Shown here in pieces: positions 2,871 to 22,358 of a DNA stretch of 64,000 nucleotides (within the stretch, counting starts at the first letter, position 1; each line of letters begins with the position of its first letter). The notes beneath the pieces were generated by a model. It searched no databases, was not told where the DNA came from, and worked only from the letters and a program-made list of their open reading frames with translations. A program made the position numbers and the translations under genes. Source of the stretch: a candidate division WOR-3 bacterium (lineage in GTDB: Bacteria > Hydrothermota > Tepidihabitantia > B3-TA06); contig JAFGSK010000071.1 in the NCBI GenBank assembly GCA_016934635.1, positions 1,294 to 65,293 of the forward strand, given 5' to 3'.

Positions 2871-3247
2871 GATGGAACGAAAAAGAAATCTTGATAGGTA
2901 AGAATAAAATGCAAATTATAGAAGGTAACATAGTTCACATTACAGCGATTGGAGATATTGATGAAGAACTTACTAAAGAAATAATGAAACTCTATGAGGA
3001 GTTGATGGAAAGAATGGAGCAAGTAAAGATGCTTTTTGATCTCAATAGAGCGGGTAAGGTTTCACCACAGGCAAGAAAATTATTTACGGAATTGGCTAGG
3101 GATAAAAGGATTCTGAAGGTTGCTTCATTCGGCTTGCATCCTGTGGCAAGGGTAATTGCGACCTTCGGTATGGGTTCAGTGTACGGAAAAGGATTCGCAC
3201 GGTTCTTTAAAACCGAGGAGGAGGCGGTTGCATGGCTGAAAGAGTGA
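2867..3247 (+). CDS. STAS/SpoIIAA-like (DUF3478-type) small protein
   Basis: 126 aa. Pattern I.EGNIVHITAIGDID...LFDL...KVSPQARKLF...KVASFGLHP...FFKTEEEAVAWL is typical of SpoIIAA-like proteins encoded next to sensor kinases. Translationally coupled to the upstream TPR gene. Confidence 0.45.
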   Translation: MRWNEKEILIGKNKMQIIEGNIVHITAIGDIDEELTKEIMKLYEELMERMEQVKMLFDLNRAGKVSPQARKLFTELARDKRILKVASFGLHPVARVIATFGMGSVYGKGFARFFKTEEEAVAWLKE

Positions 3248-3273
3248 TCACAAAGGATTGATAAGATCGAAAG

Positions 3274-7700: not shown

Positions 7701-10121
7701 GAGGTCCTGGATGTAACAATAAAGCATCTTTCCCAGGTATTCGGCTTCTTTGTCAGTGTTAATTTGATAGACAAGAAAGGAACCAGACCAGTCCTCGCTC
7801 TTAAGGCCTATCATGTTGAATCCAGGATTCTCGGACTAGCTGAAAAATTACTCGGGAGAAGGATACTCGACTGGCCGATTCCACTCTACGAAGACACCGT
7901 AATATCGAGGACAATGCGAACCGGACACCCGACGGTTATTGGTCTGGACTTTGTTCCGGATGAGCCGGTTGTAGAAACCAGTATCAAGAGTATGCTGGAG
8001 TCAATGATTGAAGCTCACAGCCCGTTACTTCCAATAGCCAGGAAAATAGCCGAGCAGGCGGGGGACAAATCGCTGTTGGGGATCCCTTTTTCCAACGCCT
8101 CGGGTGAAATAATCGGTTCTTTAACGGTGGTGGCTGATTTCCGGTTCACCAGGGATGACTACAACCTTGTCAAGGTGACTTCGGATATCATCGGTCGAGC
8201 CATCGGACAGCTGATGCTGACCGAGGAATTGCAGGAATCGGAGGAACGCTACCGGAGCTTGCAGGCCAACGTTCCTGTTGGAATCTTCAGAACGACCCCG
8301 GAGGGGGATTTGCTTTCAGCTAATCCTGCGATGCTCAGGATGCTGGGTTATGCCTCGAAGGAGGAGTTCAAACCGGTACCGTTGGAAGATGTGTATGTTA
8401 ATCCCGAACAACGGGAGGAATTTGCAAAGCTAATGGAACAGGAGGATTCGGTAACAGGTTTTGAGGTTCAGCTTAGGCATAAGGACGGTTCGACTTTCTG
8501 GGCATCAATGAATGCTACTGCTATCAAAGACGAGAAGGGAAAGATACTTTACTTCGATGGAATCCTGGAAGATATTACCGAACGCAAGCAAGCTGAGGAT
8601 TCTCTTATGCGAGAACGCCAGGCTTTTTCCATCATTGCAGAAGCTGCGATTCACGCTAAAGGGATTCAGGATCTTTGTTATCGCGTTTTGTCTGGCCTGG
8701 TCAAGACTTTGGATTTCGATGTGGGCACTGTTCAACTGTACGATCCTGTCGATCGAACACTTACCCTGAAAGCGATGTCAGGGACTTGGGGTGACAAGAT
8801 ATACGATTACGATCCTCCACAGCATATAGACGATCCTGAATACGTGGGTGCAGTCGTAGCAAGGTCTCGTAATCCTATCTTTGCTCCTGACGTGACACAA
8901 CATCAGATCTATGATACCCATAAACAGAGGCTTGAGGAGAATCATATTCGAGCGCTCATTACATGGCCGATTCTAGGATCGAACGATGAACTCTTAGGGA
9001 TTATGCACCTTATGGATGAGAACACGAGGGAGATTCCTGAAAAAGATCGCGTTTTTTTCGAGACAGTAACAGATATGTTTGCCACTGTCCTTGAACGAAA
9101 GCAGGCTGAAGAGGAGTTGAGGATAAAAGACATTGCAATCCAAAGTTCTATTAGTGGTATTGCGCTTATGGATATTGACGGTAAACTTACCTATGTCAAC
9201 GATTCATGTCTTGCGATGTGGGGATATGAGGATACAAAAGAGGTTTTAGGTAAGCCTGGTGGAAAGTATTATAAAAATAAGCGAGATGTGGTTAAGATAA
9301 TGAAGTCTTTAAGGGATGAAGGTAGCTGGATAGGAGAAGCCGAAGGCTTGAGAAAAGACGGGGTAAGCTTTCCCGTCCATCTGGCCATAAGTCTTGTGAA
9401 GAATGAAACCGGTAAGCCTTTGTTTACGATGGCTTCGTTCGTTGATGTTACAGAACGTAGGCAAGCCGAAGATCGGATTAAGGCGGCTCTTAAAGAAAAA
9501 GAGGTTCTTCTCAAAGAGATTCACCACAGGGTGAAGAATAACTTGCAGGTAATCTCATCCCTACTAAATTTACAGGCAGAGCATATTACAGACGAAGAAA
9601 CATTAAAAGTTTTCACGGAGAGTCAGAGTAGGGTTCGCTCAATCGGCCTGATTCACGAAAAGCTGTATCAATCCCCTGATTTGGCTCACATCAATCTTGC
9701 CGAATACATCCGGGGTCTTGGTGATTATTTGTTAAGTATCTATAGGGTTAATACCAGTTTTGTCAGACTCAACATGGAAATGGATGACATATTAATCGAG
9801 TTGGATAAGGCGATCCCGTGTGCATTAATAGTTAACGAGTTCGTCTCCAATGCTCTGAAGTACGCCTTTCCACATACAAGGAAAGGTATGGTTCGTATCA
9901 GGTTGCACAGAGATGAGGATGACGTAGTTATGGTCGTTTCAGATAATGGTGTAGGTATGCCTCCTGATGTAGATTTTCGTAAGACAGAATCGTTGGGGTT
10001 GCAACTGGTTGGGATATTGGTCGATCAACTTGAAGGCAGCGTTGAGCTTGAACGGAAAGAAGGAACGATATTTACGGTAAGATTCCCCTTGGGAAATTCA
10101 GGGAGAAAGGCAGATGTCTAA
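4743..10121 (+). CDS. Giant multi-sensor hybrid histidine kinase: N-terminal REC, multiple PAS and GAF-like modules, C-terminal HisKA_2 + HATPase_c
   Basis: REC with D and K (IVIMDIKL, ILKPF). PAS modules (e.g. 5130-5500, 7240-7610, 8221-8600, 9110-9470). GAF-like modules. C-terminal [21 protein letters not shown] plus DNGVGMP/GLQLV ATPase motifs. Start overlaps the upstream stop (TAATG). Confidence 0.85.
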   Translation: MSTTKILIVEDEKIVAIDLRDQLEALSYKVIGIVSSGEEAIIKASQIHPDIVIMDIKLEGQMDGIDAAEKMRNELDIPVVYLTAYADEIILERAKATEPFGYILKPFKQRTLQVAIETALYKHKTEQRLKASEESFRQIAENIREVFWLTDWTENKVLYVSPAYEEVWGHSCESLIEKPGSWAEDIHPSDRDRVFEAFRTLAPIGRYDETYRIIRSDGSVRWIHDRAFPIHDRNGNVWRVAGISEDITKEKEAEEILRRARDELEARVKDRTAELREEVLERKRAEEEVKRRAENLEAVNQLVIELSSAPSNVDLLELINRKLREITGALATGITVYDPESQELVLKHLAAPGEILQKAAKIIDKKLAGMRFPVSGDFLERMKREVVASFEDPSELSLGQIPKPVARTIQHTFGIGEVTGFALHYDGKVVGAAGIFMPQGKPPLSKDLLHIFANVVSVTLQRKRAEEEVKLRAEYSNAVNEFAIELAAASSDVNLYELIGEKLKKITAALSTVVTSYDSQTGELSIRYLGVPEDDLLQINRLLKRRAEGMRFQVDEKMFEKMITEVVATFTDLSELTFGEIPKPVASVIQKTFGVGEIAGFVLHHRGDIMGSAAIFMPKDSRGLPRNEMHIIANLCALALRRKQVEEKEHIHIRNLSFLSKSATEFVALVEDADVFGYIAERLTELVEGGIVVLVSYDEHTDKFRGEKVLGLGEKTEQVLKIFGKTLVGISTQVSAETKSRLLSGELKEFPETLYEITAGGIPEGVSKALEKVISPGAKYSMGFVQQDRLLGAAIVVLRNALKLRNPDTVEAFINQASVALQRKNAEQALRQSEERFRRFAGTVTDMIYRYDTRRSDYDFISPSCELLTGYSVGAFRSDPEHFWESLIHPDDFKRVREERRHQLSQESGTSFNLDFRIIRKDRRMIFVNERGDFEVDLNGRITSFNGVVRDITEQKVAEQQLKRRAETSTVLAALTTELYSAESVQEVLDVTIKHLSQVFGFFVSVNLIDKKGTRPVLALKAYHVESRILGLAEKLLGRRILDWPIPLYEDTVISRTMRTGHPTVIGLDFVPDEPVVETSIKSMLESMIEAHSPLLPIARKIAEQAGDKSLLGIPFSNASGEIIGSLTVVADFRFTRDDYNLVKVTSDIIGRAIGQLMLTEELQESEERYRSLQANVPVGIFRTTPEGDLLSANPAMLRMLGYASKEEFKPVPLEDVYVNPEQREEFAKLMEQEDSVTGFEVQLRHKDGSTFWASMNATAIKDEKGKILYFDGILEDITERKQAEDSLMRERQAFSIIAEAAIHAKGIQDLCYRVLSGLVKTLDFDVGTVQLYDPVDRTLTLKAMSGTWGDKIYDYDPPQHIDDPEYVGAVVARSRNPIFAPDVTQHQIYDTHKQRLEENHIRALITWPILGSNDELLGIMHLMDENTREIPEKDRVFFETVTDMFATVLERKQAEEELRIKDIAIQSSISGIALMDIDGKLTYVNDSCLAMWGYEDTKEVLGKPGGKYYKNKRDVVKIMKSLRDEGSWIGEAEGLRKDGVSFPVHLAISLVKNETGKPLFTMASFVDVTERRQAEDRIKAALKEKEVLLKEIHHRVKNNLQVISSLLNLQAEHITDEETLKVFTESQSRVRSIGLIHEKLYQSPDLAHINLAEYIRGLGDYLLSIYRVNTSFVRLNMEMDDILIELDKAIPCALIVNEFVSNALKYAFPHTRKGMVRIRLHRDEDDVVMVVSDNGVGMPPDVDFRKTESLGLQLVGILVDQLEGSVELERKEGTIFTVRFPLGNSGRKADV

Positions 10122-13100
10122 AGCCAGCATTCTTGTTGTAGAAGATATCTCGGTGACCGCGCTGGATATAAAAAATCGGTTGTTGGAGTACGGATATTCA
10201 GTATGTGGGGTGGTGACTTCCGGAGAGGAAGCTTTGCTGGAAACTGAAAGATTAAGGCCTGATCTGGTACTTATGGATATTATATTACAAGGTAAAATAG
10301 ACGGGGTCGAGGCAGCAGAGAAGATTAAGGAGGAATTAAATATACCTGTTGTTTATCTCACGGCGCACATGGATAATGCCACCCTGGATAGAGCAAGACT
10401 AACCGAGCCGTTTGGTTATATCGTTAAACCATTTGAGACCAGGGAGATGGTTTCTACTTTGGAACTGGCGCTTTATAGACATAAGATTGAGCGGGCATTA
10501 AAGGAATCTGAGGAGCGTTACCGAAGCCTCCATTCCAACGTCCCGGTAGGCGTATTTCGTTCCACACCTTCGGGGGAGGTTCTTTCAGCTAATCCGGCCA
10601 TGGTAAGGATGATGGGCTATGATTCGGAAGATGAATACAAAACCGTCTCGATTCCTGACTTGTATCTTTATCCGCAGCAACGTGATAGGTTTGTCAAAAG
10701 GTTGAAAGATGATGGTGCGATTACTGAGTTTGAGGTTCAGCTTAGAAGAAAGAACCAGACCGTTTTCTGGGCGTCCCTGACCGCAAAGGCTGTTTCCGAT
10801 AACGAGGGAAAGATAGTACATTACGACGGTATCCTGGAAGACATTTCCGAACGCAAACAACGTGAGTTGCGTGGACAGATCAGGACTCAGCTTCTAGACA
10901 AGCTGCGAGGGGCAGAAACAATCCAGGGGTGTTTGCAGTTAGGTTGCGAGGCGGTACGAGACGCGGGTTTGTTCAAACGTGCGGTATTTACAACAAAGAA
11001 CGAGAAGGGCGAGACAACCAACGCCGGCTATGTTGGTGTGGATCGACAGATCGTTGAGGAGTTGAGGAAAAAACCGCCTGCAACACGTGAGATGTATGCC
11101 CGGATGTTGAAAGAAGATTTCAAGATAAGCCATTCCTACTTTTTACCGGTAGAGGCGGGTTTGGATATCTCCCAGACCGGTAGGTACGTTCTTCAAGACG
11201 TCTCCTCAGGGGAAGGCCCAGATGCATGGCAGCGGGGAGACGAGTTGCTTGTTCCCATGTTTTCCATGAGTGGTTTAGTGGAAAGCTGGCTCTCTGTGGA
11301 TACGCCCGTGGATGGGAAAAGACCTGACGAAGCAACAATTAATTACCTGGAGGATATCGTAGACATCGTCGCTCGTCAGATCAGAGAGATTAAAAACATC
11401 ACTGCGTTGCGAGAATCCGAAGAACGATACCGGAGTTTAACAGAAAGAGCCAGTGCCGGGGTATATATTTTCGGGCCTCAGGACCGATTTATTTTTGCAA
11501 ATCCCGCAATGGAAAAAATTACCGGTTATTCGCGTAAAGAACTGATTCATATGAATCCTTGGGACATAGTAGTTCCAGAAGACAAAGAAGGCGTACTGAA
11601 AGATCGAAGCCAGGCAAGAGTCAAAGGGGAGGAACTTGAGAGTTCTTATCGGATGCGGGTTATACGAAAGAATGGGGAGGAGGCAACACTCGAGATAAAA
11701 GCTACCCCGATTACGTATGAAGGAAAGCCTGCTCAGCTCGGACACTGTATCGATATAACAGAGAGTATCAAGAACGAGAAAAAGATCGAACATCTCAATT
11801 CTGTTCTCAGAGCCATACGGAATGTCAACCAATTGATCAGTCACGAGAGAGTGCCGGAGAAATTACTCGAAGGGATTTGCAGCAAGCTCGTAGAGACTCG
11901 TAGCTTCTACAGCGCTTGGGTCGTTCTTGTGGATGATTCCGGCAAAGTGGCGTTCATTGCCGAAGCGGGACTCAAGGACAAATTTGCGCCGATTTTAAAG
12001 CCGCTCAAACAAGGAAGACTTACGGATTGCGGTCTCAAGGCCCTGGAATGTGATGATATAATAGTAATCGATGATCCGGCAAACCTATGTCGAGATTGCC
12101 ATATTCTATCCGGAGAGATTGAATCGGGCATGATGTATACCAGATTGAAGTATGCAGAAAAGATCTTCGGTGTATTAGCCGTATCCTTATCTTCCGAACT
12201 CAGCCGTGAAACCGAGGAACAGGAGTTGTTCTGTGAAGTAGGAGGAGATATCGCGTTTGCACTGTACAGCATCGAGGCAGATGAGAAACGCAGGCAGGCG
12301 GAAGAGGCGCTGGAAAGGGAACACCGCGCTTTCAAGATAATCGCCGAAGCTTCAGTCCAGGCAAAGGATATTGCTGATTTATGTAAAAGGGTACTTGAAG
12401 GATTAGTAAAAGCTTTAGTTTTTGACGTGGGAACCTTCAGATTGTACGATGCGGATCACAAATTACTCAAGTTGTGGGCTTCTTTTGGCTTGAGTGAAGA
12501 AGAGATAAAGGATGCATCTGGGGCTCAACCGTTGAACGATCCCCGTTACGTTGCAGCTTTAACGGCACGCACTTCAGAACCAATAATCGCTCCTGATATC
12601 TACAGGACAGAAAGACTGCAACCCTTTATATCTAGACTAGAAAAATTCGAAGAGCGCTCCCTTATTTCCTGGCCTATCCTTGACGGACGGCAAGGCTTGC
12701 TCGGTGTATTACAACTCTGGTCCAAGAAAGAAGTAGATATCTCTGAAGGTGATAGGACATTTTTTGAAAGAGTGGCCGGGATGTTTGCCACTGTTTTGGA
12801 ACGCAAACGTACAGAGGAGGAACTTGATCGTCAGCACCAAAAAATAGAAGCATTGTTTGATAATGTCGATGTGCTGCTCTGGTCTATGCGAGAAGGAGAA
12901 GATGGGGAACTCTATTACGAACAGGTCAATTCTGCTTTTGCAGCTGTTGAAGGTTACTCCCCTGATTATTATAATGAGAAGACCATCTCTGAATTACATC
13001 CTCGTGAACAATGCAATGGTATCATGAATACTTATGCCTGGGTTAAGAATGACGGGATGCACGTTAATGATGTTCATTATAAGGGTAGACACTTTGTTAT

Positions 13101-15927
13101 GCGGTTCTTTCCCTTAAAAGATTTTGACGGCAGGATACGTGGATTCATCGGTTCAGGTATCGATATAACCGACCGTAAACGTGCCGAAGAAGGTATTAAA
13201 TCCCGTCTATTCTATGAAGAGAGTGTATCACACTGCTCTCAAATATTGGTAGAGATGGTGGATTTGGGTGAAGCACTTCAGCAGGTGACAGACGAGATGC
13301 TTTCGGTAGGAAAGGCCAGTCGTGCTTTTATATTCAAAAATCTTGACGGTCCGCAGGATGTTATATTCAGTCGTCTGATTAACGAGGCCGTTGCCGATGG
13401 TGTAGAGCCTCAGATTACGGATACCAGGTTTCAACACCTTGTTTTGCAAGAGGCGTCACAGGAGCTTTTCCAGAAACTTTCTTCCGGAAGACCTTATGGA
13501 GGATCTGTTAAGGAATTACCTTCAGAGGATAGAACGGCTCTTTTTTCACCTGAAACCCGTTCTGTTTTAATACTACCGATTCTTATAGAAGATAAATTCT
13601 GGGGATTTATTGGTTTTGAGGATCAGGTGAAAGAACGCAAGTGGACCCAGGAAGATATTCAACTCTTACGTACCCTAGGATCGCTGATTGGCTCTACGAT
13701 AGAAAGAAGGCGAGCAGAGGAGGGGTTACGTGAATCAGAGGAACGCTATCGGGCGTTTACCGAGGAAGCCCTGGTCGGCGTTTATATTTATCGTGAAAGA
13801 CGATTCCTTTTCGTAAACCGGGCCATGGAAGAAATCACCGGGTACTCCCGTGAAGAACTCCTCGCTATGGATACCGGGAAGCTGGTAATTGCCGAAGATC
13901 AAGCTATGTTAACGGCCAGATCCGAGGCGAGGGAAAGAGGCGAGGAGGTTCCTTCACAGTACAGTATGAGAATTGAAAGGAAGAACGGCCAGATAGCCGT
14001 TCTTGAGGTAAGAACCCGCCAGATAGTTTTTGCCGGACAAAAGGCTTATCTGGGCAACTGCGTGGATATTACCGAGATTCGGAGGGTCCAGGAGGCGTTA
14101 GAGAAATCAGAGGAGCGTTATCGGGTACTTACAGAGGAAGCTATGGTCGGTATTTATCTGACCGTGGGCAAGAATTTCGTTTTTCTTAATCCTGCGATGG
14201 AGAAGATAACCGGCTATACTCGTAATGAATTACTCAAGATAGATATGCATTCCATAGTTGTTTCGGAAGATGTAGAGATGATAACCGAAAGAAAAAAACA
14301 GCGAAAACCCGGACAGCCGGATCAATACACAATGCGCATAAAACGAAAGACCGGAGAGATTGCTACGTTGGAAGTCAGGGTTCGTCCTATTCCTTATCAG
14401 GATAAAGCGGCTTTCCTAGGTAACTGTGTTGACATTACCGAGATAATAAATAATAGGAAACAGATAGAACAGGCGAAAAGGGCCTGGGAGAGTACGTTTG
14501 ATTCTATCTCTGATCTCGTGATGATCCTGGATACTGAATATCGCATTATCCGGGCTAATCGTGCCGTAAAGGAGTATACCGGTATCGATTTCAACGATCT
14601 TTTAGGAAGAAATTATCTGGACGTATACAATTTGAACGAAGAAGATAAAGGCATGAAAGAAATACTAGGCAGAAAAGCCAAGCTTCCCGAACACTTCGAG
14701 ATCAAAGACTCGGTACGGGGCAGGATGTTTTCGGTATCGGTTTCTCCGTTGATCGATCCAGTAGGTGAGATAATAGCCACGGTTCACGTAGCGCGTGACA
14801 TCAGCGATATGCGGATGATGGAAGAGGCCTTGGCAGAATCTGAGGCGCAATTCAGGGGTTTGGCGGAGAGTGCAATGGATATTATATTCAGCGTGGAACT
14901 CGACGGAATGATCAGCTACGTCAATCCCAGCGTTGAGGAGATCCTGGGTGTCAATCCGGCGGTATTCATAGGAAGTAACCTCGGGAGTATGAAGGACTCG
15001 AGGCTTTTTACGGCTGAGGTTCGTAAAGTACTTAGCCGAAATCTTTCCTCAAATCTTGAAGAAAAAGATATACCGTTTTTCGAGATAGAGACCGAAGACG
15101 TGAAAGGGCGCAAGCATGTCATAGAGGTGTCTGCACGTAGATTATTTCATCGTATAGTAGGTATCGCACGCGACGTTACAGAACGGAATCTTATGCAACA
15201 GCAGTTGATCAAGGCTTCCAAACTGGCCTCGATCGGAGTCCTCGCTGCTGGGATAGCTCATCAGGTCAATAATCCGCTTGCTATACTTCTCGTACACTCT
15301 ACACTTCTTCGAACTATCTTTACAGATAGGGAGGAAATACCGTTGGAAGTAAAAGAAGAGGTATCAGAATATCTCGATACGATGGAGGAGCAGGTAGAAC
15401 GAACTCGTCGGGTAGTTTCAGGTCTTTTGGAGTTTACTCAACCTGAACGATCCGAACCGAAGCCTACTGACGTTAATCCAATCGTAAATCAAGCTGCAAA
15501 GTGGCTTTCTCAACGTTACTCTCTGGAGGAGTTGACGCTTGAGCTTTTTCTGGATAAAGCCTTGCCCCGAGCATTTCTCGATAAGGTAGCGTTGGAGCAG
15601 GTAATTATGAACGTTATCGAAAATGCATACGATGCCATGGAAGGCTCAGGCAAACTCTCAATCGAGACCATGCTTGTAAATCAGAGTACGGTTAGTATCC
15701 GGATCAGCGATACCGGCCCAGGTGTTCCTTCCGAGATTCGAGATGAGATTTTTGAACCTCTTTATACAACAAAGTCCGGCAAAAAGGGAACAGGATTAGG
15801 CTTGTCTCTTGCCTCAATGCTTTTAGAGCGTTTCGGAGGACGTATTTATCTTGCAGACACCAAAAACGAAGGTGCGAGTTTTGTAATAGAAGTTCCAGTA
15901 TACCAGGATAAGGTTGATGAATCTTAA
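10114..15927 (+). CDS. Giant multi-sensor hybrid histidine kinase: N-terminal REC, multiple PAS/GAF modules, classic HisKA + HATPase_c
   Basis: REC (LVLMDIILQ, IVKPF). At least six PAS-like and three GAF-like modules. H-box IAHQVNNPLAIL (HisKA). HATPase_c with DTGPGVP and GTGLGLSL. Start overlaps the upstream stop by 8 nt (ATGTCTAA). Confidence 0.85.
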   Translation: MSKASILVVEDISVTALDIKNRLLEYGYSVCGVVTSGEEALLETERLRPDLVLMDIILQGKIDGVEAAEKIKEELNIPVVYLTAHMDNATLDRARLTEPFGYIVKPFETREMVSTLELALYRHKIERALKESEERYRSLHSNVPVGVFRSTPSGEVLSANPAMVRMMGYDSEDEYKTVSIPDLYLYPQQRDRFVKRLKDDGAITEFEVQLRRKNQTVFWASLTAKAVSDNEGKIVHYDGILEDISERKQRELRGQIRTQLLDKLRGAETIQGCLQLGCEAVRDAGLFKRAVFTTKNEKGETTNAGYVGVDRQIVEELRKKPPATREMYARMLKEDFKISHSYFLPVEAGLDISQTGRYVLQDVSSGEGPDAWQRGDELLVPMFSMSGLVESWLSVDTPVDGKRPDEATINYLEDIVDIVARQIREIKNITALRESEERYRSLTERASAGVYIFGPQDRFIFANPAMEKITGYSRKELIHMNPWDIVVPEDKEGVLKDRSQARVKGEELESSYRMRVIRKNGEEATLEIKATPITYEGKPAQLGHCIDITESIKNEKKIEHLNSVLRAIRNVNQLISHERVPEKLLEGICSKLVETRSFYSAWVVLVDDSGKVAFIAEAGLKDKFAPILKPLKQGRLTDCGLKALECDDIIVIDDPANLCRDCHILSGEIESGMMYTRLKYAEKIFGVLAVSLSSELSRETEEQELFCEVGGDIAFALYSIEADEKRRQAEEALEREHRAFKIIAEASVQAKDIADLCKRVLEGLVKALVFDVGTFRLYDADHKLLKLWASFGLSEEEIKDASGAQPLNDPRYVAALTARTSEPIIAPDIYRTERLQPFISRLEKFEERSLISWPILDGRQGLLGVLQLWSKKEVDISEGDRTFFERVAGMFATVLERKRTEEELDRQHQKIEALFDNVDVLLWSMREGEDGELYYEQVNSAFAAVEGYSPDYYNEKTISELHPREQCNGIMNTYAWVKNDGMHVNDVHYKGRHFVMRFFPLKDFDGRIRGFIGSGIDITDRKRAEEGIKSRLFYEESVSHCSQILVEMVDLGEALQQVTDEMLSVGKASRAFIFKNLDGPQDVIFSRLINEAVADGVEPQITDTRFQHLVLQEASQELFQKLSSGRPYGGSVKELPSEDRTALFSPETRSVLILPILIEDKFWGFIGFEDQVKERKWTQEDIQLLRTLGSLIGSTIERRRAEEGLRESEERYRAFTEEALVGVYIYRERRFLFVNRAMEEITGYSREELLAMDTGKLVIAEDQAMLTARSEARERGEEVPSQYSMRIERKNGQIAVLEVRTRQIVFAGQKAYLGNCVDITEIRRVQEALEKSEERYRVLTEEAMVGIYLTVGKNFVFLNPAMEKITGYTRNELLKIDMHSIVVSEDVEMITERKKQRKPGQPDQYTMRIKRKTGEIATLEVRVRPIPYQDKAAFLGNCVDITEIINNRKQIEQAKRAWESTFDSISDLVMILDTEYRIIRANRAVKEYTGIDFNDLLGRNYLDVYNLNEEDKGMKEILGRKAKLPEHFEIKDSVRGRMFSVSVSPLIDPVGEIIATVHVARDISDMRMMEEALAESEAQFRGLAESAMDIIFSVELDGMISYVNPSVEEILGVNPAVFIGSNLGSMKDSRLFTAEVRKVLSRNLSSNLEEKDIPFFEIETEDVKGRKHVIEVSARRLFHRIVGIARDVTERNLMQQQLIKASKLASIGVLAAGIAHQVNNPLAILLVHSTLLRTIFTDREEIPLEVKEEVSEYLDTMEEQVERTRRVVSGLLEFTQPERSEPKPTDVNPIVNQAAKWLSQRYSLEELTLELFLDKALPRAFLDKVALEQVIMNVIENAYDAMEGSGKLSIETMLVNQSTVSIRISDTGPGVPSEIRDEIFEPLYTTKSGKKGTGLGLSLASMLLERFGGRIYLADTKNEGASFVIEVPVYQDKVDES

Positions 15928-15988
15928 CCCCGATTTAGATGTGAAAGGTTGGATCTTATGAGAGTTATCCTTCGGGGAATAGAAAGGA

Positions 15989-16729
15989 GTGGAGATGATG
16001 GCTAAGGCACGTATTCTTTTTGTTGATGATGAGCGCACGTTCGCTGACGCTATGTCCCAGTTACTTCGTATTAACGGTTATGAAGTTCAAGCAGCCTATT
16101 CCGGAAAACTTGCCATGGAGATATTCCAACCCGGGGAGTTTGACCTGGTGATTACCGACTTAAGCATGCCTACCATGGATGGAATTGAGTTGGTCCGTCA
16201 GATTAGAAAACTTAATTCCTATCAGAGGATTATTGTTGTTACAGGGTTTCCCTCCCAGCGTTCACAAGAACAGGCTTATAAGTTGGGTACATTGAATTAT
16301 ATAGCCAAGCCCTTTAAGCCTCAGCGGTTTCTTGAATTGGTTAACGATGCCCTGCGAGGTCAGGAGGAGGGTTTGCTTGGCGCTATAAAGCTTTCTCCTT
16401 CAGATCTTGTGCAGCTTTACAGCTATATGGGAAAGACAATTGTACTTGAAATACTTAAAGGCAAGAACGGAGAGGCGGGTCGAATATACTTCAGTAAAGG
16501 CCAGGTAGTTCACGCAGAAACCGAGCAACTTAAAGGCAAGGAAGCGTTTTACGAGATTCAAACGTGGTTTTCAGGTATATTTAAGACAGAGAAACCGCAG
16601 CCAGAATTTCCTCATACGATTGATGAGGATGTGGACGTGTTGCTTCTGGAAGCGGCACGCAGGCAGGATGAACAACCTTGGCCTGTTGTTAAAAGAGAGG
16701 AGTGTGAAGATAATGAAGACTCCGGTTGA
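15989..16729 (+). CDS. Response regulator: REC domain fused to DUF4388 (PATAN-like) domain
   Basis: REC motifs (ILFVDDE, LVITDLSMP, YIAKPF). C-terminal LSPSDLVQLYSYMGKTIVLEIL...GRIYFSKGQVVHAE...GKEAFYEIQTWFSGIF matches the DUF4388 consensus. Confidence 0.7.
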   Translation: MEMMAKARILFVDDERTFADAMSQLLRINGYEVQAAYSGKLAMEIFQPGEFDLVITDLSMPTMDGIELVRQIRKLNSYQRIIVVTGFPSQRSQEQAYKLGTLNYIAKPFKPQRFLELVNDALRGQEEGLLGAIKLSPSDLVQLYSYMGKTIVLEILKGKNGEAGRIYFSKGQVVHAETEQLKGKEAFYEIQTWFSGIFKTEKPQPEFPHTIDEDVDVLLLEAARRQDEQPWPVVKREECEDNEDSG

Positions 16730-16761
16730 TTGTAACTCCGGAGCTTGAAAGGTAATCTATT

Positions 16762-17664
16762 ATGAATGAGCGGGCAAGGATCCTTTTTGTAGACGATGAG
16801 CGTAAATTTGCCGATGCAATGGCAAAGGTGCTACGATACGGGGATTTTAACGTACAGACTGCGTATTCGGGAAGCCAGGCTCTTGATTTTTATCAAAGCG
16901 AAAGCTTTGACCTGGTTATCACTGATCTCAAGATGCCGGTAATGGACGGTATTGAATTGATTCGTCGAATAAAACAGATCAATCAAGATCAGTTAATACT
17001 GGTTATCACCGCATTTCCCACCCAGTGTATGCCATGGAACAGAAGGTTCTCAGAATCAGGCGCGCCAGAGCTGGATCTGGAAACGGTCAACTATCTGGTT
17101 AAGCCTTTTACACCCAAGCGTTTGATAGAGGTTGTTGAGAAAACCTTTCGTGAAAAAGATGTGGCTTTGGGCCGGAAGGTTTCAGTTGCCGAATCTGCAG
17201 ACGAAACACTCACTTCGGAAGAAGAGATGTTTTCCCATGAACCTGTAGCAGGGAAAACCAGCCAGAAAGTGGTGAAACCGACATCCGGAAACTTTATATC
17301 CAATGCTGCATTAGAGATTCTTGAAGAGTCCTCCGGGGCCGTGGGTGCACCGGCTGTATGTGCCCTGGTTGGTTTTGACGGGGTAACCATAGCTGAGGTG
17401 AATACCAGCGGTATGGGTAAGGATGCCTATTCAGGAAAGTTCGCAGACGCCATGAAGCTCTTACGGAAAACACTTGCCGAGGTTGGAAGCGGACATCTGA
17501 ACGAGGGGACACTCAAACTGGATAAACACTGGATTCTCGTCCGGTTCCTGGATCGAGCGAATTGTTACCTTTGTATAGTTGCTCTGCTCGGTGTTCCGAT
17601 CGGAACCCTGAGAACGGTTGCCAAAAAGACGGTTGAAGGGCTGAGCTCGGTCCTGGAGATGTAA
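16762..17664 (+). CDS. Response regulator: REC domain fused to Roadblock/LC7 (MglB-like) domain
   Basis: REC is a paralog of the preceding gene (ARILFVDDERKFADAMAKVL). C-terminal ALEILEESSGAVGAPAVCALVGFDGVTIAEV...CYLCIVALLGVPIGTLRTVAKKTVEGL fits the Roadblock/LC7 fold pattern. Confidence 0.6.
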   Translation: MNERARILFVDDERKFADAMAKVLRYGDFNVQTAYSGSQALDFYQSESFDLVITDLKMPVMDGIELIRRIKQINQDQLILVITAFPTQCMPWNRRFSESGAPELDLETVNYLVKPFTPKRLIEVVEKTFREKDVALGRKVSVAESADETLTSEEEMFSHEPVAGKTSQKVVKPTSGNFISNAALEILEESSGAVGAPAVCALVGFDGVTIAEVNTSGMGKDAYSGKFADAMKLLRKTLAEVGSGHLNEGTLKLDKHWILVRFLDRANCYLCIVALLGVPIGTLRTVAKKTVEGLSSVLEM

Positions 17665-17711
17665 GCGGGTGTAGGCGACGCAGTTGCCTTCAAAGAACAC
17701 AGAGCTTCATA

Positions 17712-17745
17712 TCAAATCTCAAATATCAAATCTGATAATTCAAAT
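17712..17745. repeat. Four TCAAAT hexamers (aTCAAATcTCAAATaTCAAATctgataatTCAAATtg)
   Basis: Direct reading of the intergenic sequence. Confidence 0.6.
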
Positions 17746-17816
17746 TGATTGGGTATGAGGTATGTGGCATGACTTTCTGTAGAGGCTTACAGCGAACCGC
17801 TCACAGCTGAGAGATT

Positions 17817-17855
17817 GAAACACAGAGGGCACAGAGAACACAGAGATAACAGGGG
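17817..17855. repeat. Tandem 9-nt periodic repeat: CACAGAG x3, plus a degenerate 4th unit
   Basis: CACAGAG at 17821, 17830 and 17839, with an exact 9-nt period, followed by taacagggg. Confidence 0.7.
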
Positions 17856-17938
17856 TTTAGGCTGATTACTTTTCTGTGATTCCAGTGTTGTAAAACCCAC
17901 TTTATGCAAATTCAAATGTTAAAATACGGCGTAACTTA

Positions 17939-17966
17939 CCACAAAGAACACAAAGCACACAAAGAT
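17939..17966. repeat. Tandem 9-nt periodic repeat: CACAAAG x3
   Basis: CACAAAG at 17940, 17949 and 17958, the same 9-nt period as the upstream CACAGAG array. Confidence 0.7.
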
Positions 17967-18063
17967 TCCTTTCAAAAATGAAGAATGAGATTTTCCCTTA
18001 CCTGTATCCTTCGGTGCCGCGGTTGCTTTTGGCTTTCATGCAATGACACTATCTACTTTTATG

Positions 18064-18091
18064 TTGACTACCGTCTGGTTCTGAATAGAGT
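18064..18091 (+). promoter_or_regulatory. Sigma70-like promoter, TTGACT-16-TAGAGT, upstream of the antiporter gene
   Basis: -35 TTGACT at 18064-18069, 16-nt spacer, -10 TAGAGT at 18086-18091. ATG at 18150. Confidence 0.4.
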
Positions 18092-18149
18092 AAGATATGG
18101 ATTGTTGGCAGCTTAAATCGATCTTGATCCTCAAAATGAGCAGAACCTT

Positions 18150-19196
18150 ATGGCGTGGCTGGTAGTTCAGTTCGCGATCTGCGTCGGTGTCATCGTTGCG
18201 GCAGGTTTTTTCCTGGTAAGGTTCGGAGATGCGCTTGCCGAGAAAACTAAGCTCGGACGTTTATGGGCTGGCGCTATACTCATCGCCACTGCCACGTCTT
18301 TACCTGAGCTTTTCACCGGGATAAGTTCGGTACTCATATTCGACGTTCCGGATTTGACGGTCGGAACCCTTTTAGGCTCGTGCGCCTTTAACCTTCTCCT
18401 TCTGGTCATGCTCGATATTCTTACGGGAAAACGATCTTTCTTCGACGGCGTCAACCCTGCCTATATCGTCGAGGCAGGATTTGCACTTTCCTTCACGACG
18501 ATAATGGCCCTGGGGCTTTTCTTCTCGGCGGAGTTCAAGGATTTCCCCTGGATTTGGCCTGGCAGCATACTTCTGCCCGCAGTCTACGTTCTTGCCGTAC
18601 ACATTACCATGCGCGAGGGTCGGTATCCTCCGTACGTCCAGGATTTGACCAAAGAGGAAGCCGAGGCTATGAAGGCGCGAGCGCGCAAGGTCAAAACCGG
18701 CAGGAAAAAGGAGAAGCCTCTGACCCTATGGCAGACGATCCTTGGGTACGCGGTTTCGGCGCTTCTTGTAATCGGCGCTTCTATATGGCTTCCAGGCGTC
18801 GCAGACAAGATAGCTGGACGGGTACCCTGGCTCGGAACGACGGTGATAGGCGGGATAGTGGTAGCCTTGACCACCTCGCTACCTGAGATAATAACGACTA
18901 TTGCCGCCTTCAAGCTCGGTGCGGTGGACATGGCGTTCTCGAACGTGGTAGGCTCGAACCTTTTCAACATCCTCATACTCGGCATAGACGACATGCTTTA
19001 CTTCAAGGGGCCGATAACCTCCCACGTGTCCGGTGTGAATCTCGGTACGGCGTTGATAGTCATGGGGATGACTGCGGTGGTCATTATCGCCCTGGCAATC
19101 AGGAGGCAGCGGAAATTCCTCAGGCTGTCCCTGGCAAGCTGGGCGCTGGTACTGTCCTTTATTGCCAACATCCTGCTAGTTTCGTTTCTCGCCTAG
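18150..19196 (+). CDS. Ca2+:cation antiporter (CaCA) family membrane protein, YrbG-like sodium/calcium exchanger
   Basis: Two alpha-repeat signatures, ATSLPELFTGISS and TTSLPEIITTIAA...GSNLFNILILG. About 10 predicted TM helices. Confidence 0.75.
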   Translation: MAWLVVQFAICVGVIVAAGFFLVRFGDALAEKTKLGRLWAGAILIATATSLPELFTGISSVLIFDVPDLTVGTLLGSCAFNLLLLVMLDILTGKRSFFDGVNPAYIVEAGFALSFTTIMALGLFFSAEFKDFPWIWPGSILLPAVYVLAVHITMREGRYPPYVQDLTKEEAEAMKARARKVKTGRKKEKPLTLWQTILGYAVSALLVIGASIWLPGVADKIAGRVPWLGTTVIGGIVVALTTSLPEIITTIAAFKLGAVDMAFSNVVGSNLFNILILGIDDMLYFKGPITSHVSGVNLGTALIVMGMTAVVIIALAIRRQRKFLRLSLASWALVLSFIANILLVSFLA

Positions 19197-19300: not shown

Positions 19301-19499
19301 TCAGCGGTTAGTTCTCCATCCTTGACATCACCGATCCTGTGACTATTATTATCCTCAATGTACGGCAATAAGGCGGTTGCATTCGCTACTGAACCAGGGG
19401 ATGCCTCCAGAAAAGACTCCAGACATGAATCGGACGCAGGTTTTTTTCGGGTTAACGGTCTATATAATGAGAAAGAAATTCCTTCGATCGGAGGTTTTA

Positions 19500-22358
19500 A
19501 TGTGGTCTAAGATGATTAGGGCTGCCATTGTGGGGTTGATACTTGCCGTGCCTGCGTCTGCGCAGTATTTCTACGGCAAGAACAAGGTGCAGCGGGAGGT
19601 TGAAGCAACCTATACCTACGAGACCGAGCATTGTACCATCTACATAGAAGAGGGCGGAGAGCCTCTTGCTAGGTTTGCTGCAGAGGCGGCAGAGGAGGCC
19701 TATAAGCAGCATGCCCAGGACTTCGGGTTCGAGATTCCTTTCAAGATTCCGGTCATCATCTATAAATCGCAGCCTGATTTTGCCGCAACCAACATTATAC
19801 TTGAACCTATCGAGGAATCGATAGGCGGCTTTGCAGAGATTTTCAAGAACCGCGCGGTAATTCCTTTTACCGGATCCTACGAGGATCTCAGGCACGTTAT
19901 CTTCCACGAACTGGTGCATATTTTCCAGTACGAGCTATACTACTCTTTGACTATGTCCAACCTTTTCTCCATCATACCCGGTTTTACACCGCCTCTGTGG
20001 ATAATGGAGGGCTGTGCAGAATTTTCGTCATCCCACGGAGGCGCGGACGAAGACGCCTTCATGCGCGATCTACTCCTGACCAACAATATCATTCCCCTGG
20101 AAGAGCTGGAGTATTGGCAGGGTTATATCGTTTACCGCCAGGGTGAGTCGGTATTCATGTTCATCGAGGATCGCTACGGTCGTGAAAAGGCCTTTGAACT
20201 CATGCACGCCATCAAGTTGAGGGGGAGCATGGACGGTGCGTTCGAGAAGGTTTTCGGGATGAGTGTCGAGGAGTTCGGCAAGGACTGGCTGAACTGGCTG
20301 CGCAAGAAGTATCTTCCCGAGATAGAAAAACTGGACAACCGCAAGATCCAGGCCAGGCTGCTAACAGACCATGAAAAGGACTTTTCGTACTACAACGGTA
20401 GTGTGGCCCTCTCGCCATCAGGTGCCAAGATAGCCTATGCTACCACCAAGGGAGACTATATCACGGTCAACGTGATCAGCGGGTTCGACGGCAAGCCTTT
20501 AAAGAAGCTGCTCAAGGCAGGTCGCTCGGCAACCTTTGAGAGGTTACCGCTTCTGCGCCGGACCCTTGCCTGGTCCGAAGATGAGACCTATCTTGCAGTA
20601 CTAGGATTTTCCCGCAACCAGCCGGTTCTTTTGTGGGTAAACTACTCCACAGGCAAGACCGAGAAAAGGTATCGGCTGAAGGTTGATGATGCATATGCAC
20701 CTGTCATATCACCTGACGGTAATCGCGTGGTTTACGTGGGTATCAAGGACGGCCAAAGCGATCTTTATTCGCTTGACCTGGGGTCGGGAAACGTTGAACG
20801 TTTAACCTACGACCTTTACGAGGAGCAGGACCCTTCTTTTAACGAAGGTTACGTGCTTTACGTGTGCGATAAGCCTGATCAAGACAGCGTATGGCGCGTA
20901 GGCAGCTACGCCGTATGGCAGCTATCAGCGTCAGGAAGGACCAAGCGCGTCTCACCGAGGTTCTCTGAACTTTCCTGCCCATATCGTATGGAAGATGAGA
21001 TTGTATTCATAGGTTCCGGATACAATCTTTACTCCTATGATCCGGAGGATTCCACCCTTATTCAGCTTACCGACTGGTTCGAGAAGATAGAGGAGTTTTC
21101 GCCTGCTTCAAGCGGGAAGGCTGCGATGATTATTTACACCAACTCGGGTTACGACGTGGCAATGCTTAACGGTACCCTCGAAGGTCTTACACCTGCCCAG
21201 GACAGCCTGGAGATAGCCCATGCCGATCTTTTCTCCTATGAGCCGGAAGAGGTGACCATAGAGGACCTTGAACCCTACAAGCCAGCCTTTTCGGCGGATT
21301 ACATCTACGGGTCAGGGGCTTACTCCTCCCTGTACGGGGCAACCGGCAATATCAGCCTGGCTATCAGCGATATGCTGGGAGATCACCGCATCTACATAGA
21401 CGCCAATCTCTACGGGGATATACTCTATTCGGATATAGTCGTATCCTACTGGTTCCTTAAACGCAGGGTAGATTATGCGGTTGGCGGTTTTCAACTTGGC
21501 GATTATTATCTGTATTTAACCTCGGATTCGTCGTTTTTGTACATCGAGCGTGCCCGGCGAGGATTGAGTACCCTGGTTTCAATGCCCTGGAGTAAGTTTT
21601 TCAGACTGGAAACCGGCCTTGACGGGATGGCGGTAACTCACCATGAGTATTACGACGGATACATTGACGAAACAGGCAACATAGTATTTGAGCATGATAC
21701 GATATACACCCAGCCTTTATTCCAAGCCAACGCCTGGCTTGTGTTCGACAATGCGATATGGAATTACTATACCCCGATGAACGGATTGCGGCTGAGGTTG
21801 GGTGGGTACAGTTCCTTTCTTTCTTCTACCCAATACCAGACCGTGATGACCGACCTCAGGGGCTATCTACCGATCACACGCAGAGCCTCGATTGCCCTTC
21901 GTACCTTTGGGGCTGCAAGTTTCGGTCAAGACAGGGAATACTTCTATCTGGCCGGAGGCGGATTCGGGGAGTACCGCGATTTCTTCTTCTTCGGCGGGCC
22001 GTACGAGGTTCGGGGCTACCAGTACTCCTCCTACGATGCGTTCGTCGGTTCAAAGGTTGCTTTTGCAAACCTTGAGCTCCGGGTTCCGTTCGTGGATCAG
22101 CTGAAGATGTCTTTTCCCCTGCCATTGAACCTGGGCGGGATTCGAGGGGTTGTTTTTACCGATGCCGGGTTCGTATGGGACGAAGAACTGCCTCGACTTT
22201 GGCAGGGCGGCAGACTCGAAGACCTCAAGGCCGGGTACGGGGTAGGAATTCGCTGGGTCTTCGGTTACTTTATGCTCAAGTTTGATTTTGCCAGGCCGTA
22301 TCAAACCGATGAGGAGAAACCATGGAAGTTTCATTTCCGGATAGGTGCGGATTTCTAA
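19500..22358 (+). CDS. Outer-membrane Omp85-family beta-barrel protein with N-terminal HEXXH metallopeptidase-like domain and PD40/TolB-like beta-propeller repeats
   Basis: RBS GGAGG 9 nt upstream of ATG 19500. Signal peptide MWSKMIRAAIVGLILAVPASAQ. HELVH zinc-binding motif. PD40-like repeats (ISPDGNRVVYV, SDLYSLDLGSG). C-terminal Omp85 barrel signatures: the VRGY loop-6 motif (GGPYEVRGYQY), GYGVGIRWVFGYFMLKFDFARP, terminal F. Confidence 0.6.
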   Translation: MWSKMIRAAIVGLILAVPASAQYFYGKNKVQREVEATYTYETEHCTIYIEEGGEPLARFAAEAAEEAYKQHAQDFGFEIPFKIPVIIYKSQPDFAATNIILEPIEESIGGFAEIFKNRAVIPFTGSYEDLRHVIFHELVHIFQYELYYSLTMSNLFSIIPGFTPPLWIMEGCAEFSSSHGGADEDAFMRDLLLTNNIIPLEELEYWQGYIVYRQGESVFMFIEDRYGREKAFELMHAIKLRGSMDGAFEKVFGMSVEEFGKDWLNWLRKKYLPEIEKLDNRKIQARLLTDHEKDFSYYNGSVALSPSGAKIAYATTKGDYITVNVISGFDGKPLKKLLKAGRSATFERLPLLRRTLAWSEDETYLAVLGFSRNQPVLLWVNYSTGKTEKRYRLKVDDAYAPVISPDGNRVVYVGIKDGQSDLYSLDLGSGNVERLTYDLYEEQDPSFNEGYVLYVCDKPDQDSVWRVGSYAVWQLSASGRTKRVSPRFSELSCPYRMEDEIVFIGSGYNLYSYDPEDSTLIQLTDWFEKIEEFSPASSGKAAMIIYTNSGYDVAMLNGTLEGLTPAQDSLEIAHADLFSYEPEEVTIEDLEPYKPAFSADYIYGSGAYSSLYGATGNISLAISDMLGDHRIYIDANLYGDILYSDIVVSYWFLKRRVDYAVGGFQLGDYYLYLTSDSSFLYIERARRGLSTLVSMPWSKFFRLETGLDGMAVTHHEYYDGYIDETGNIVFEHDTIYTQPLFQANAWLVFDNAIWNYYTPMNGLRLRLGGYSSFLSSTQYQTVMTDLRGYLPITRRASIALRTFGAASFGQDREYFYLAGGGFGEYRDFFFFGGPYEVRGYQYSSYDAFVGSKVAFANLELRVPFVDQLKMSFPLPLNLGGIRGVVFTDAGFVWDEELPRLWQGGRLEDLKAGYGVGIRWVFGYFMLKFDFARPYQTDEEKPWKFHFRIGADF

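Follow-up and report, generated by a model that had tools for sequence, protein, structure and literature searches.

The locus described here lies within a 64-kb window, which is the whole stretch of DNA that was analysed, and contains two adjacent response regulator genes on the + strand. Both open reading frames are present where an earlier sequence-only reading of this DNA had placed them, and their translations match the peptides quoted there. Gene A (15998..16729; GenBank MBN2380675.1) encodes a 243-amino acid REC-PATAN response regulator with a receiver (REC) domain at residues ~6-115 (nt 16013-16342) and a PATAN/DUF4388 domain at residues ~132-226 (nt 16391-16675). The ATG at 15995 or 15998 is more likely to be the start of this gene than the GTG at 15989, because an AGGAG Shine-Dalgarno site precedes these two ATG codons. 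Gene B (16762..17664; GenBank MBN2380676.1) encodes a 300-amino acid REC-Roadblock response regulator, as defined by its translation, Pfam REC and AlphaFold. Its REC domain (16780..17136, residues 7-125, delimited by Pfam and ortholog alignment) is followed by a predicted disordered linker (17194..17292, residues ~145-177), which has pLDDT <50 at residues 148-176 and is variable among orthologues, and then by an MglC-like Roadblock/LC7-fold domain (17293..17652, residues 178-297).

Upstream on the same strand, Pfam searches identify HK2 (10114..15927), a 1937-amino acid hybrid sensor kinase with an N-terminal REC domain, multiple PAS and GAF domains, and HisKA and HATPase_c domains. Farther upstream lie genes for a TPR protein (1512-2870), a STAS/SpoIIAA-like protein (2867-3247), a HAMP-HisKA_2 kinase that we call HK0 (3274-4743) and a REC-PAS/GAF-HisKA_2 kinase that we call HK1 (4743-10121). 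The genes between 1512 and 10121 share one strand, have ends that abut or overlap, and are probably co-transcribed. The previous description of ‘giant sensor kinases’ upstream of A and B is borne out by Pfam, given that two kinases with a REC-PAS/GAF-kinase layout reach 1792 and 1937 amino acids.

The REC domains of A and B are paralogues, as had been claimed, with 49% identity over 133 amino acids (E = 4e-42); their identity to the receivers of the two kinases upstream is only 25-27%. Both score far above the gathering cut-off of the PF00072 profile (30.2 bits), at 98.1 bits for A (E 4.5e-28) and 78.1 bits for B (E 7.4e-22). As read from alignments, the phospho-switch residues are kept in A (D10/D11, D54, T82, Y101 and K104) and in B (D11/D12, the phospho-acceptor D55, T83, Y111 and K114). 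The A-type and B-type receivers form sister clades that are each monophyletic and 53% identical to one another, and their alpha1 segments (FADAM) are near-identical. One feature unique to B is a nine-residue insertion between beta4 and beta5, in the alpha4 region, that contains the signature Q88-x-x-P91-W92-N93-R94-R95 (17023..17046). Alignment of B-type orthologues reveals that this signature is invariant in all seven of them, and alignment comparison found no such PWNRR insertion in A-type receivers or in the receivers of the fused REC-PATAN-Roadblock proteins described below. The insertion loop is poorly modelled by AlphaFold (pLDDT 56-65). We also considered a recent origin of B from a REC-PATAN-Roadblock protein through loss of the PATAN domain. 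This origin is unsupported, because the A and B receivers are each other's closest relatives, with only 32-34% identity to fused-type REC domains, and because a PATAN HMM finds no match in the linker of B.

The earlier assignments of both output domains, DUF4388/PATAN in A and Roadblock/LC7 in B, prove to be correct. In A, the PATAN profile (PF14332) scores 58.7 bits at residues 132-226 (cut-off 25; E 7.6e-16), and both REC and PATAN are conserved in A orthologues from five other lineages. A search of the PDB with the PATAN profile yielded no related solved structure. Protein A does not have the layout of PatA-type regulators, since its domain order is REC-PATAN rather than PATAN-REC, and no CheA, CheW or MCP genes surround it; its neighbours are PAS/GAF histidine kinases as judged by Pfam. 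We entertained the idea that the acidic, Trp-containing C-terminal tail of A imitates the C-terminal helix with which RomR contacts the KRR surface of MglC, and rejected it because A-type orthologues show no conservation of this tail.

The Roadblock assignment for B needed indirect proof, because its C-terminus (127-155 amino acids; residues 146-300 or 174-300) has no Pfam match at E <= 1. The Pfam model PF03259 is insensitive for the Roadblock/LC7 superfamily (PMC4316618). A word-indexed homologue search with the C-terminus of B returned no relatives, and an exhaustive HMMER search with the C-terminal domain returned 50. PF03259 (Robl_LC7) is matched by 37 of the 51 sequences in the B-domain family set. 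Among solved structures, the family profile matches MglC best (1.4e-14), followed by an Asgard Roadblock protein (1.2e-10), CvnB5 (1.4e-4) and MglB (6.7e-4), with matches to the Roadblock proteins 9jue/7yh1/7f8m in the range of 1e-10 to 5e-9. An AlphaFold model built from the single sequence of B reaches a pLDDT of only 36, and the model based on a multiple sequence alignment reaches 85.9, with values above 90 in a C-terminal domain of a-b-b-a-b-b-b-a topology. Profile searches and structure prediction, the checks proposed with the original assignment, thus establish that the output domain of B truly adopts the Roadblock fold, within an MglC-like family, and not an unrelated one.

Comparison of gene neighbourhoods, another check that had been suggested, demonstrates that HK2, A and B constitute a three-gene cassette that has been inherited together in six lineages. 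The REC-PATAN gene lies directly 5' of the REC-Roadblock gene in all 12 B-type loci (six lineages, 215 kb), and every B-type locus whose DNA reaches upstream has an orthologue of the HK2 kinase core. The last 330 amino acids of HK2 are 53-60% identical to the kinase immediately 5' of the gene pair in L001, L002, L003, L005, L006 and L008. HK1 and HK0 are only 23-28% identical to those kinases. Because the kinases that precede A and B elsewhere have cores that are not orthologous to those of HK1 and HK0, the latter two fall outside the cassette, as do all the genes from 1512 to 10121, which are specific to the window. In every lineage the genes that flank the cassette are different. The PATAN and Roadblock motifs are both retained across the six lineages.

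Paired receivers behind one kinase raise the question of whether one of them acts chiefly as a sink or competitor for phosphate, thereby tuning the other, such that the output domain of the first would be of minor importance. CheY paralogues of some chemotaxis systems provide a precedent for such sinks, and the near-identical kinase-recognition segments of the two receivers are compatible with the idea. Furthermore, two reports describe antagonistic paired response regulators in pilus polarity systems (PMC10519157, PMC11181946). However, the conservation of both output domains in all six lineages speaks against this explanation, and PATAN and Roadblock domains are fused to each other in other lineages, which argues that the two output domains are cooperative and that neither is dispensable. 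We therefore judge a phosphate-sink role to be highly improbable.

These fusions are also central to the question of GTPase linkage. Among the 50 relatives of the B domain, about 14-17 have the architecture REC-PATAN-Roadblock and six have PATAN-Roadblock, a natural fusion of about 250 amino acids, and a rough background of 80 generic receiver loci retrieved by REC motifs contained no Roadblock domain of the B family. The sequence-only reading held that no GTPase is encoded nearby, and indeed no Ras/Arf/Roc/MglA-type Pfam match occurs among window ORFs of at least 100 amino acids, nor does a local MglA HMM match any window ORF of at least 60-70 amino acids. Flanking DNA of up to 10 kb retrieved around orthologous loci likewise encodes no small GTPase, and a GTPase, an MglB-like protein or a further Roadblock gene is found in none of the 12 B-type loci. 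The orphan position of B is not unusual in itself, because 328 of 749 MglB homologues do not adjoin mglA (PMC4719450). The proposed link of PATAN and Roadblock domains to Ras-like GTPase modules is evident in the relatives. Of the PATAN-Roadblock loci, every one with sufficient DNA upstream (seven of seven) carries an MglA-Robl-[PATAN-Robl]-Robl operon, and the GTPase that heads these operons is a true MglA (3.5e-54 to PDB 3t12_A). At locus L009, a REC-PATAN-Roadblock fusion is encoded ~1.4-2 kb upstream of an MglB-like/MglA-like pair, although MglA is nearby in only one of nine REC-PATAN-Roadblock loci. The relatives that carry the MglA link are ~25-35% identical to B in the Roadblock domain, and the link for B rests on these more distant proteins because its own 12 loci are without a GTPase.

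It seems appropriate, then, to ask whether the output might operate without any GTPase, with phosphorylated PATAN/Roadblock regulators acting directly on a cellular machine such as a PilB-type ATPase of type IV pili or type II secretion. The PATAN domain of cyanobacterial PixE is enough both for binding to PilB1 and PilC, at their N-terminal domains, and for reversing phototaxis, in an account that involves no GTPase (bioRxiv 10.1101/2021.06.11.447907), and the absence of GTPase and additional Roadblock genes from the 12 B-type loci, together with the absence of a nearby MglA from eight of nine fused loci, fits this alternative. However, neither in the window nor at any orthologous locus does the cassette have a pilus, secretion-ATPase or motility gene linked to it, the Roadblock family of B is tightly coupled to MglA in the PATAN-Roadblock operons, and most Roadblock-superfamily proteins that have been characterised serve as regulators or scaffolds of NTPases (PMC4316618). 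On balance, direct action of this kind strikes us as somewhat unlikely. A related scenario, which we consider unlikely, is that the cassette is a self-contained device whose ancestral GTPase has been lost, in a phylum that lacks MglA. If this were true, phosphorylating the sister receivers would cause a PATAN-Roadblock hetero-complex to form or come apart, this complex would act on a cellular machine without an intermediary, and the cassette would represent a bacterial Roadblock platform run by phosphorylation rather than by a GTPase cycle.

If a GTPase is involved, the kind of Roadblock protein that B represents becomes critical. The sequence-only reading labelled the domain an MglB-type GAP, and suggested in the first place phosphorylation-gated control of a GTPase encoded elsewhere. 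The label is not supported by profile comparison, in which the family scores 57.1 bits with MglC (7ct3) and 22.7 bits with MglB (6h5b), matching the preference in E-values given above. As a single sequence, B finds MglC as its sole Roadblock match, at a non-significant E of 1.3. A comparison of the C-terminal domain alone with NCBIfam, including the MglB model NF052242, gave no match at E <= 1, in contrast to the 146-amino acid MglB-like neighbour at L009, which matches that model at 5.6e-20. The Roadblock domain of B ends with the core fold and has no C-terminal extension, and coupling to mglA within about four genes, as for MglB, is found neither in the 64-kb window nor at any of the 12 B-type loci.

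MglC itself is a Roadblock adaptor reported to be without measurable GAP activity (PMC10329633), and its interaction surfaces are called FDI (F25, D26 and I28) and KRR (K104, R106 and R110) (PMC4719450, PMC10329633). The segment F205-D206-G207-V208 of B aligns with the FDI surface, and T282/R284/K288 align with the KRR surface, such that R284 and K288 of B occupy two of the three KRR positions and a non-basic residue (T282) occupies the first. Across 47 sequences of the B-domain family, the aligned positions hold D in 43, R in 45 and K/R in 26, and no polar residues of the family are more conserved than the equivalents of D26 and R106. The FDI-surface match is only suggestive, because the D-G motif, which sits in the turn between beta1 and beta2, may have a partly structural role. 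The same surface, with F205/D206/V208, corresponds to the MglA-contacting face of MglB (PMC4719450), which could be read in favour of a GAP, and IMG calls the B orthologues ‘predicted regulator of Ras-like GTPase activity’. In addition to the profile evidence, the extra stand-alone Roadblock proteins in the MglA operons of the family could supply GAP activity; single-sequence PDB searches with two of these (130 and 123 amino acids) assigned neither an MglB-like nor an MglC-like class. Judged by sequence, the B domain is nearer to the non-GAP adaptor MglC than to MglB, and B is more likely to be an adaptor than a GAP. A phosphorylation-gated GAP is, in our estimation, improbable. One departure from the stand-alone MglC type of ~120 amino acids, which goes together with a group-1 MglA in the genome, is that the Roadblock domain of B is fused to a REC domain.

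Given these observations, we propose that a single kinase phosphorylates both receivers and that the two outputs jointly adapt a putative, remotely encoded polarity module of the MglA type, a model that we regard as having about an even chance of being right. HK2 would stand at the head of a branched two-component pathway by phosphorylating both A and B. We infer this phosphotransfer from adjacency only; two more kinases are encoded in the same apparent operon of the window. Phosphorylation would then alter the contacts that the two output domains, neither of which is enzymatic in this model, make with one another and with their partners, and the alpha4-beta5-alpha5 face, where the PWNRR insertion of B is located, probably transmits the change. 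The PATAN and Roadblock domains may be viewed as one adaptor unit because they are fused in single polypeptides elsewhere. This unit would recruit or release parts of a putative polarity or motility switch of the MglA/MglB type, whose genes would lie elsewhere in the genome. The template is Myxococcus xanthus, in which RomR, a response regulator, and MglB, a GAP, are connected through MglC.

The M. xanthus polarity module (RomR, MglC, MglB and MglA) resembles the proposed arrangement in that a REC regulator works with an MglC-type Roadblock protein. Moreover, MglC is the best solved-structure match of the B family, residues F205/D206/V208, R284 and K288 of B align with its FDI and KRR surfaces, and relatives of the B domain occur in operons headed by a true MglA. 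In contrast, the REC-Roadblock connection is covalent in B, whereas RomR binds MglC through an acidic C-terminal helix; MglA, MglB, RomX and RomY are not near A and B; B is paired with a PATAN regulator; a giant PAS/GAF kinase, instead of the Frz chemosensory system, provides the input; and the host is an uncultured WOR-3 bacterium. Cyanobacterial PatA-type PATAN-REC proteins (PatA, PixG, PixE, PilG and LsiR) share with A the combination of PF14332 and PF00072 and the use of PATAN as an output that acts through protein-protein contact. Unlike A, with its reversed domain order, obligate Roadblock-bearing paralogue as a neighbour and no linked pilus genes, they bind PilB1/PilC and function in Tax/Pil systems, which resemble chemotaxis systems and use CheA-type kinases.

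The REC-PATAN-Roadblock and PATAN-Roadblock fusions (P0010-P0050, L092-L113) offer the same three domains, with a Roadblock domain of the B family (E 1e-8 to 1e-16), and some fused genes (L094, L095 and L099) likewise have a PAS/GAF hybrid kinase gene and a distinct REC-PATAN gene ahead of them. The window differs by splitting the domains over two proteins with one receiver each, by having the disordered linker of B where the fusions have PATAN, and by receivers that form a clade of their own, with the PWNRR insertion unique to the REC domain of B. The Streptomyces conservon (CvnA kinase, CvnB Roadblock, CvnC and the MglA-like GTPase CvnD) also couples a histidine-kinase-type sensor genetically to a Roadblock protein, and CvnB5 is a detectable relative of the B family, but conservons have no receivers and no PATAN, and the GTPase is always in the operon (PMC4316618). 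By domain layout, the archaeal REC-NitrOD3 proteins (Galperin et al. 2018, PMC5847659) are likewise similar in fusing a receiver to a Roadblock/LC7-related output, although they are Thaumarchaeota-specific and have no PATAN partner described (PMC5847659).

The linkage of PATAN, REC and Roadblock domains has been known since 2006, when it was noted by Makarova et al., to go by the citation in PMC4316618, and PATAN genes near those for MglA/MglB were also reported earlier (PMC4316618). B orthologues already carry a Roadblock-type regulator label in IMG. New here are the HK2-A-B cassette, the occurrence of the B family in REC-PATAN-Roadblock and PATAN-Roadblock proteins, the MglA operons and the nearness to MglC. 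The practical weight of the finding is limited by the uncultured organism and by the previously known domain associations. However, the recurrent fusions give a functional hint for PATAN/DUF4388, in that they point to MglC-like Roadblock domains as its partner. The action of the Frz response regulators on the Myxococcus polarity module has been described as unknown (PMC10329633), and two-component input into bacterial Ras-like GTPase/Roadblock polarity switches is still unclear. The cassette provides a simpler natural system for this problem, in which phosphorylation-dependent interactions between Roadblock and PATAN domains could be reconstituted from three proteins.

The two response regulator genes that close the same-strand run encode receivers joined to different output domains. 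Gene A (15989 or 15998 to 16729, + strand) specifies a REC-PATAN protein and gene B, which adjoins it (16762-17664, +), a REC-Roadblock protein. Both translations contain the peptides quoted in the sequence-only reading, and both genes are preceded by a Shine-Dalgarno-like sequence, which for A points to a start at an ATG (15995 or 15998) rather than at the GTG at 15989. Identical public records exist on a contig of 112 kb (MBN2380675.1 and MBN2380676.1), each titled ‘response regulator [candidate division WOR-3 bacterium]’, a lineage currently named Caldifarciminota. Pfam divides A into REC (4.5e-28) and, as had been proposed, DUF4388 (7.6e-16), an entry (PF14332) that corresponds to the PATAN domain (bioRxiv 10.1101/2021.06.11.447907).

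The receivers are indeed paralogs of each other, since A and B share 49% identity over 133 residues (BLASTP, E = 4e-42), versus only 25-27% between A and the receivers of the two upstream kinases. In a neighbour-joining tree built from REC domains, A-type and B-type sequences form two monophyletic sister clades that are 53% identical to each other; receivers of these clades are only 32-34% identical to those of REC-PATAN-Roadblock proteins, in which both output domains are fused. Alignments reveal that the acidic pocket, the phospho-acceptor aspartate (D54 in A, D55 in B) and the Thr/Tyr/Lys switch residues are intact in both receivers. That one of the two paralogs acts as a phosphate sink seems to us very improbable. 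The B receiver also carries a Q-x-x-P-W-N-R-R motif (17023-17046, +; residues 88-95) that is invariant in all seven aligned B-type receivers. The motif lies within a 9-residue insertion between beta4 and beta5, in the alpha4 region, and is thereby placed on the alpha4-beta5-alpha5 face, which is the usual output surface of receivers.

In B, Pfam sees only REC; its C-terminal 127-155 residues yield no Pfam match even at E <= 1, and a word-indexed protein search returned no relatives of this region. When residues 159-300 were searched exhaustively with HMMER against 1.84 billion representative proteins, 50 relatives emerged at E <= 1e-3, including nine at E <= 1e-10. Among the resulting 51 sequences, B included, Pfam recognizes Robl_LC7 in 37, REC in 24 and DUF4388 in 23. 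A profile built from the trimmed domain alignment matches the solved structures of MglC (7ct3, 1.4e-14), other Roadblock/LC7 proteins (9jue, 7yh1 and 7f8m, 1e-10 to 5e-9), CvnB5 (1.4e-4) and MglB (about 7e-4), with weak matches to dynein Roadblock and LAMTOR3. The Roadblock/LC7 assignment made from the sequence was therefore right.

However, the accompanying label of ‘MglB-type GAP’ is unsupported. By profile comparison, the family of B's domain is much closer to MglC (57 bits) than to MglB (23 bits), and B's domain on its own yields no NCBIfam match, whereas an MglB-like protein from a related locus (L009) matches the NCBIfam MglB model at 5.6e-20. Like MglC (120 aa), B ends three residues past the last core helix. 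MglC is an adaptor that shows no measurable GAP activity, and it binds MglB through F25/D26/I28 and RomR through K104/R106/R110 (PMC4719450, PMC10329633). In the family-profile alignment these residues correspond to F205-D206-(G207)-V208 and T282/R284/K288 of B, and the most conserved family positions are D206 (43/47), G207 (47/47) and R284 (45/47). This likeness is no more than suggestive, since structure may partly account for the D-G turn. Given these comparisons, we judge it improbable that B is a true GAP.

In the window, A and B are the final genes of a run with abutting or overlapping ends that also encodes a TPR protein (1512-2870), a STAS-like protein (2867-3247), the HAMP-HisKA_2 kinase HK0 (3274-4743), the 1792-aa REC-PAS/GAF-HisKA_2 kinase HK1 (4743-10121) and the 1937-aa REC-PAS/GAF-HisKA kinase HK2 (10114-15927), all on the + strand. 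No terminator-like site was found in 15800-18300, and the next gene, beyond a 486-bp gap, encodes a Na/Ca exchanger. The surrounding DNA holds several other features. An ISL3-family transposase fragment (46-447, +) adjoins a truncated Ser/Thr kinase (541-957, -) retaining only Pkinase profile positions 99-198, which suggests insertion-related gene decay at the window start. A 993-aa protein with Peptidase_MA_2, a PD40 repeat and a C-terminal Omp85 barrel (19377-22358, +) and a 1280-aa gingipain-like Peptidase_C25 with a Por_Secre_tail/FlgD_ig C-terminus characteristic of type IX secretion cargo (23849-27691, +) point to a putative type IX secretion system. Three paralogous ORFs lie in tandem (45191-46894, 47098-48864 and 49022-50785, +; 567, 588 and 587 aa, 43-75% mutual identity) and match no Pfam family except for one weak CARDB hit. 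An AAA_15/AAA_21 (OLD/AbiEii-like) ATPase is apparently split into a 107-aa N-terminal ORF (53207-53530) and a 424-aa C-terminal ORF (53627-54901, both +), which could be due to a frameshift, to pseudogene formation or to misassembly.

Orthologous pairs occur in 12 loci from six lineages (215 kb in total, window included), where the REC-Roadblock proteins form six clusters of 283-300 aa with 31-50% identity over the matched Roadblock stretch. Wherever a locus contains enough DNA, the REC-Roadblock gene directly follows a REC-PATAN gene, and the kinase encoded immediately before the pair is an ortholog of HK2 (kinase cores 53-60% identical), not of HK1 or HK0. The kinase cores of the latter two are 46% identical, which indicates a local duplication. 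Flanking genes vary by lineage (radical SAM, HinfI restriction-modification, S8 peptidase or Na/Ca exchanger), and the conserved unit is a three-gene cassette of HK2-type kinase, REC-PATAN and REC-Roadblock. One locus (L008) has an extra 107-aa ORF between the pair (9562-9885, +) that matches our local PATAN HMM but not Pfam. Furthermore, a sigma54-dependent (NtrC-type) response regulator gene lies directly 5' of PATAN/Roadblock genes in three architectures, B-type, fused and PATAN-Roadblock (L008 6836-8230, L009 8563-9912 and L010 2879-4372), and may be a transcriptional arm that recurs in this pathway.

As the sequence-only reading had stated, no cognate small GTPase is nearby: Pfam and local HMMs detect no Ras/Arf/Roc/MglA-type GTPase, and no further Roadblock or PATAN domain, among the ORFs of the 64-kb window. 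Local HMMs likewise find no GTPase or additional Roadblock gene in any of the 12 loci. This absence favours the main rival explanation, a GTPase-independent output such as direct binding of a PilB-like ATPase, which a cyanobacterial PATAN domain has been shown to do (bioRxiv 10.1101/2021.06.11.447907). Yet these loci also lack any pilus or motor gene, and we therefore consider such an output rather unlikely.

The link to GTPase modules proposed earlier is supported through relatives. Besides B-type proteins, the family includes REC-PATAN-Roadblock proteins (about 14-17), PATAN-Roadblock proteins (6) and stand-alone Roadblock proteins of ~120 aa (about 17). Scanning metagenomes with the fused-type subgroup yielded a further 22 loci, on which a local HMM census was run. 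In all seven PATAN-Roadblock loci that reach far enough upstream, the gene lies in an operon encoding MglA (197 aa), Roadblock (130 aa), PATAN-Roadblock and Roadblock (123 aa). This arrangement, with a PATAN-Roadblock protein of about 250 aa, recurs in JGI metagenome contigs (L102-L110; e.g. L107 3029-5167). Pfam recognizes none of its three Roadblock domains. By sequence similarity the GTPase qualifies as a bona fide MglA (3.5e-54 to Thermus thermophilus MglA, 1.5e-52 to Myxococcus xanthus MglA). REC-PATAN-Roadblock genes often have an independent REC-PATAN gene and a divergently oriented REC-GAF-PAS kinase gene upstream (L094, L095 and L099), and only one of nine such loci (L009) has an MglB-like and MglA-like pair nearby. 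These architectures form a series from GTPase-coupled PATAN-Roadblock operons through REC-PATAN-Roadblock fusions to the split pair of the window, along which two-component kinase coupling rises and MglA linkage falls.

Parts of this picture have precedents. A link of PATAN to REC and Roadblock domains, and to the neighbourhoods of MglA/MglB genes, was reportedly made by Makarova et al. in 2006, and Wuichet and Sogaard-Andersen described it anew in 2014 (PMC4316618). Orphan MglB homologs are common (328/749; PMC4719450), and archaeal receiver-Roadblock-like regulators are already catalogued (PMC5847659). Two B orthologs bear the COG-based IMG label ‘CheY-like / predicted regulator of Ras-like GTPase activity’. 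In the literature searched, we found no description of the conserved split cassette together with the giant kinase dedicated to it, the sister relationship of the receivers, the PWNRR insertion, the MglC-like (not MglB-like) nature of B's domain or the four-gene MglA operon.

Starting from the domain identities, the intact switch residues, the cassette, the sister receivers, the PATAN-Roadblock fusions and the MglA linkage of fused relatives, we propose that HK2 would phosphorylate both A and B, whose PATAN and MglC-like Roadblock domains would jointly serve as protein-binding adaptors. By analogy with the RomR-MglC-MglB system of M. xanthus, their target may be a polarity or motility switch of the MglA/MglB type whose genes lie elsewhere in the genome. 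We give this pathway, from HK2 through paired adaptors to a remote GTPase switch, about an even chance of being correct.
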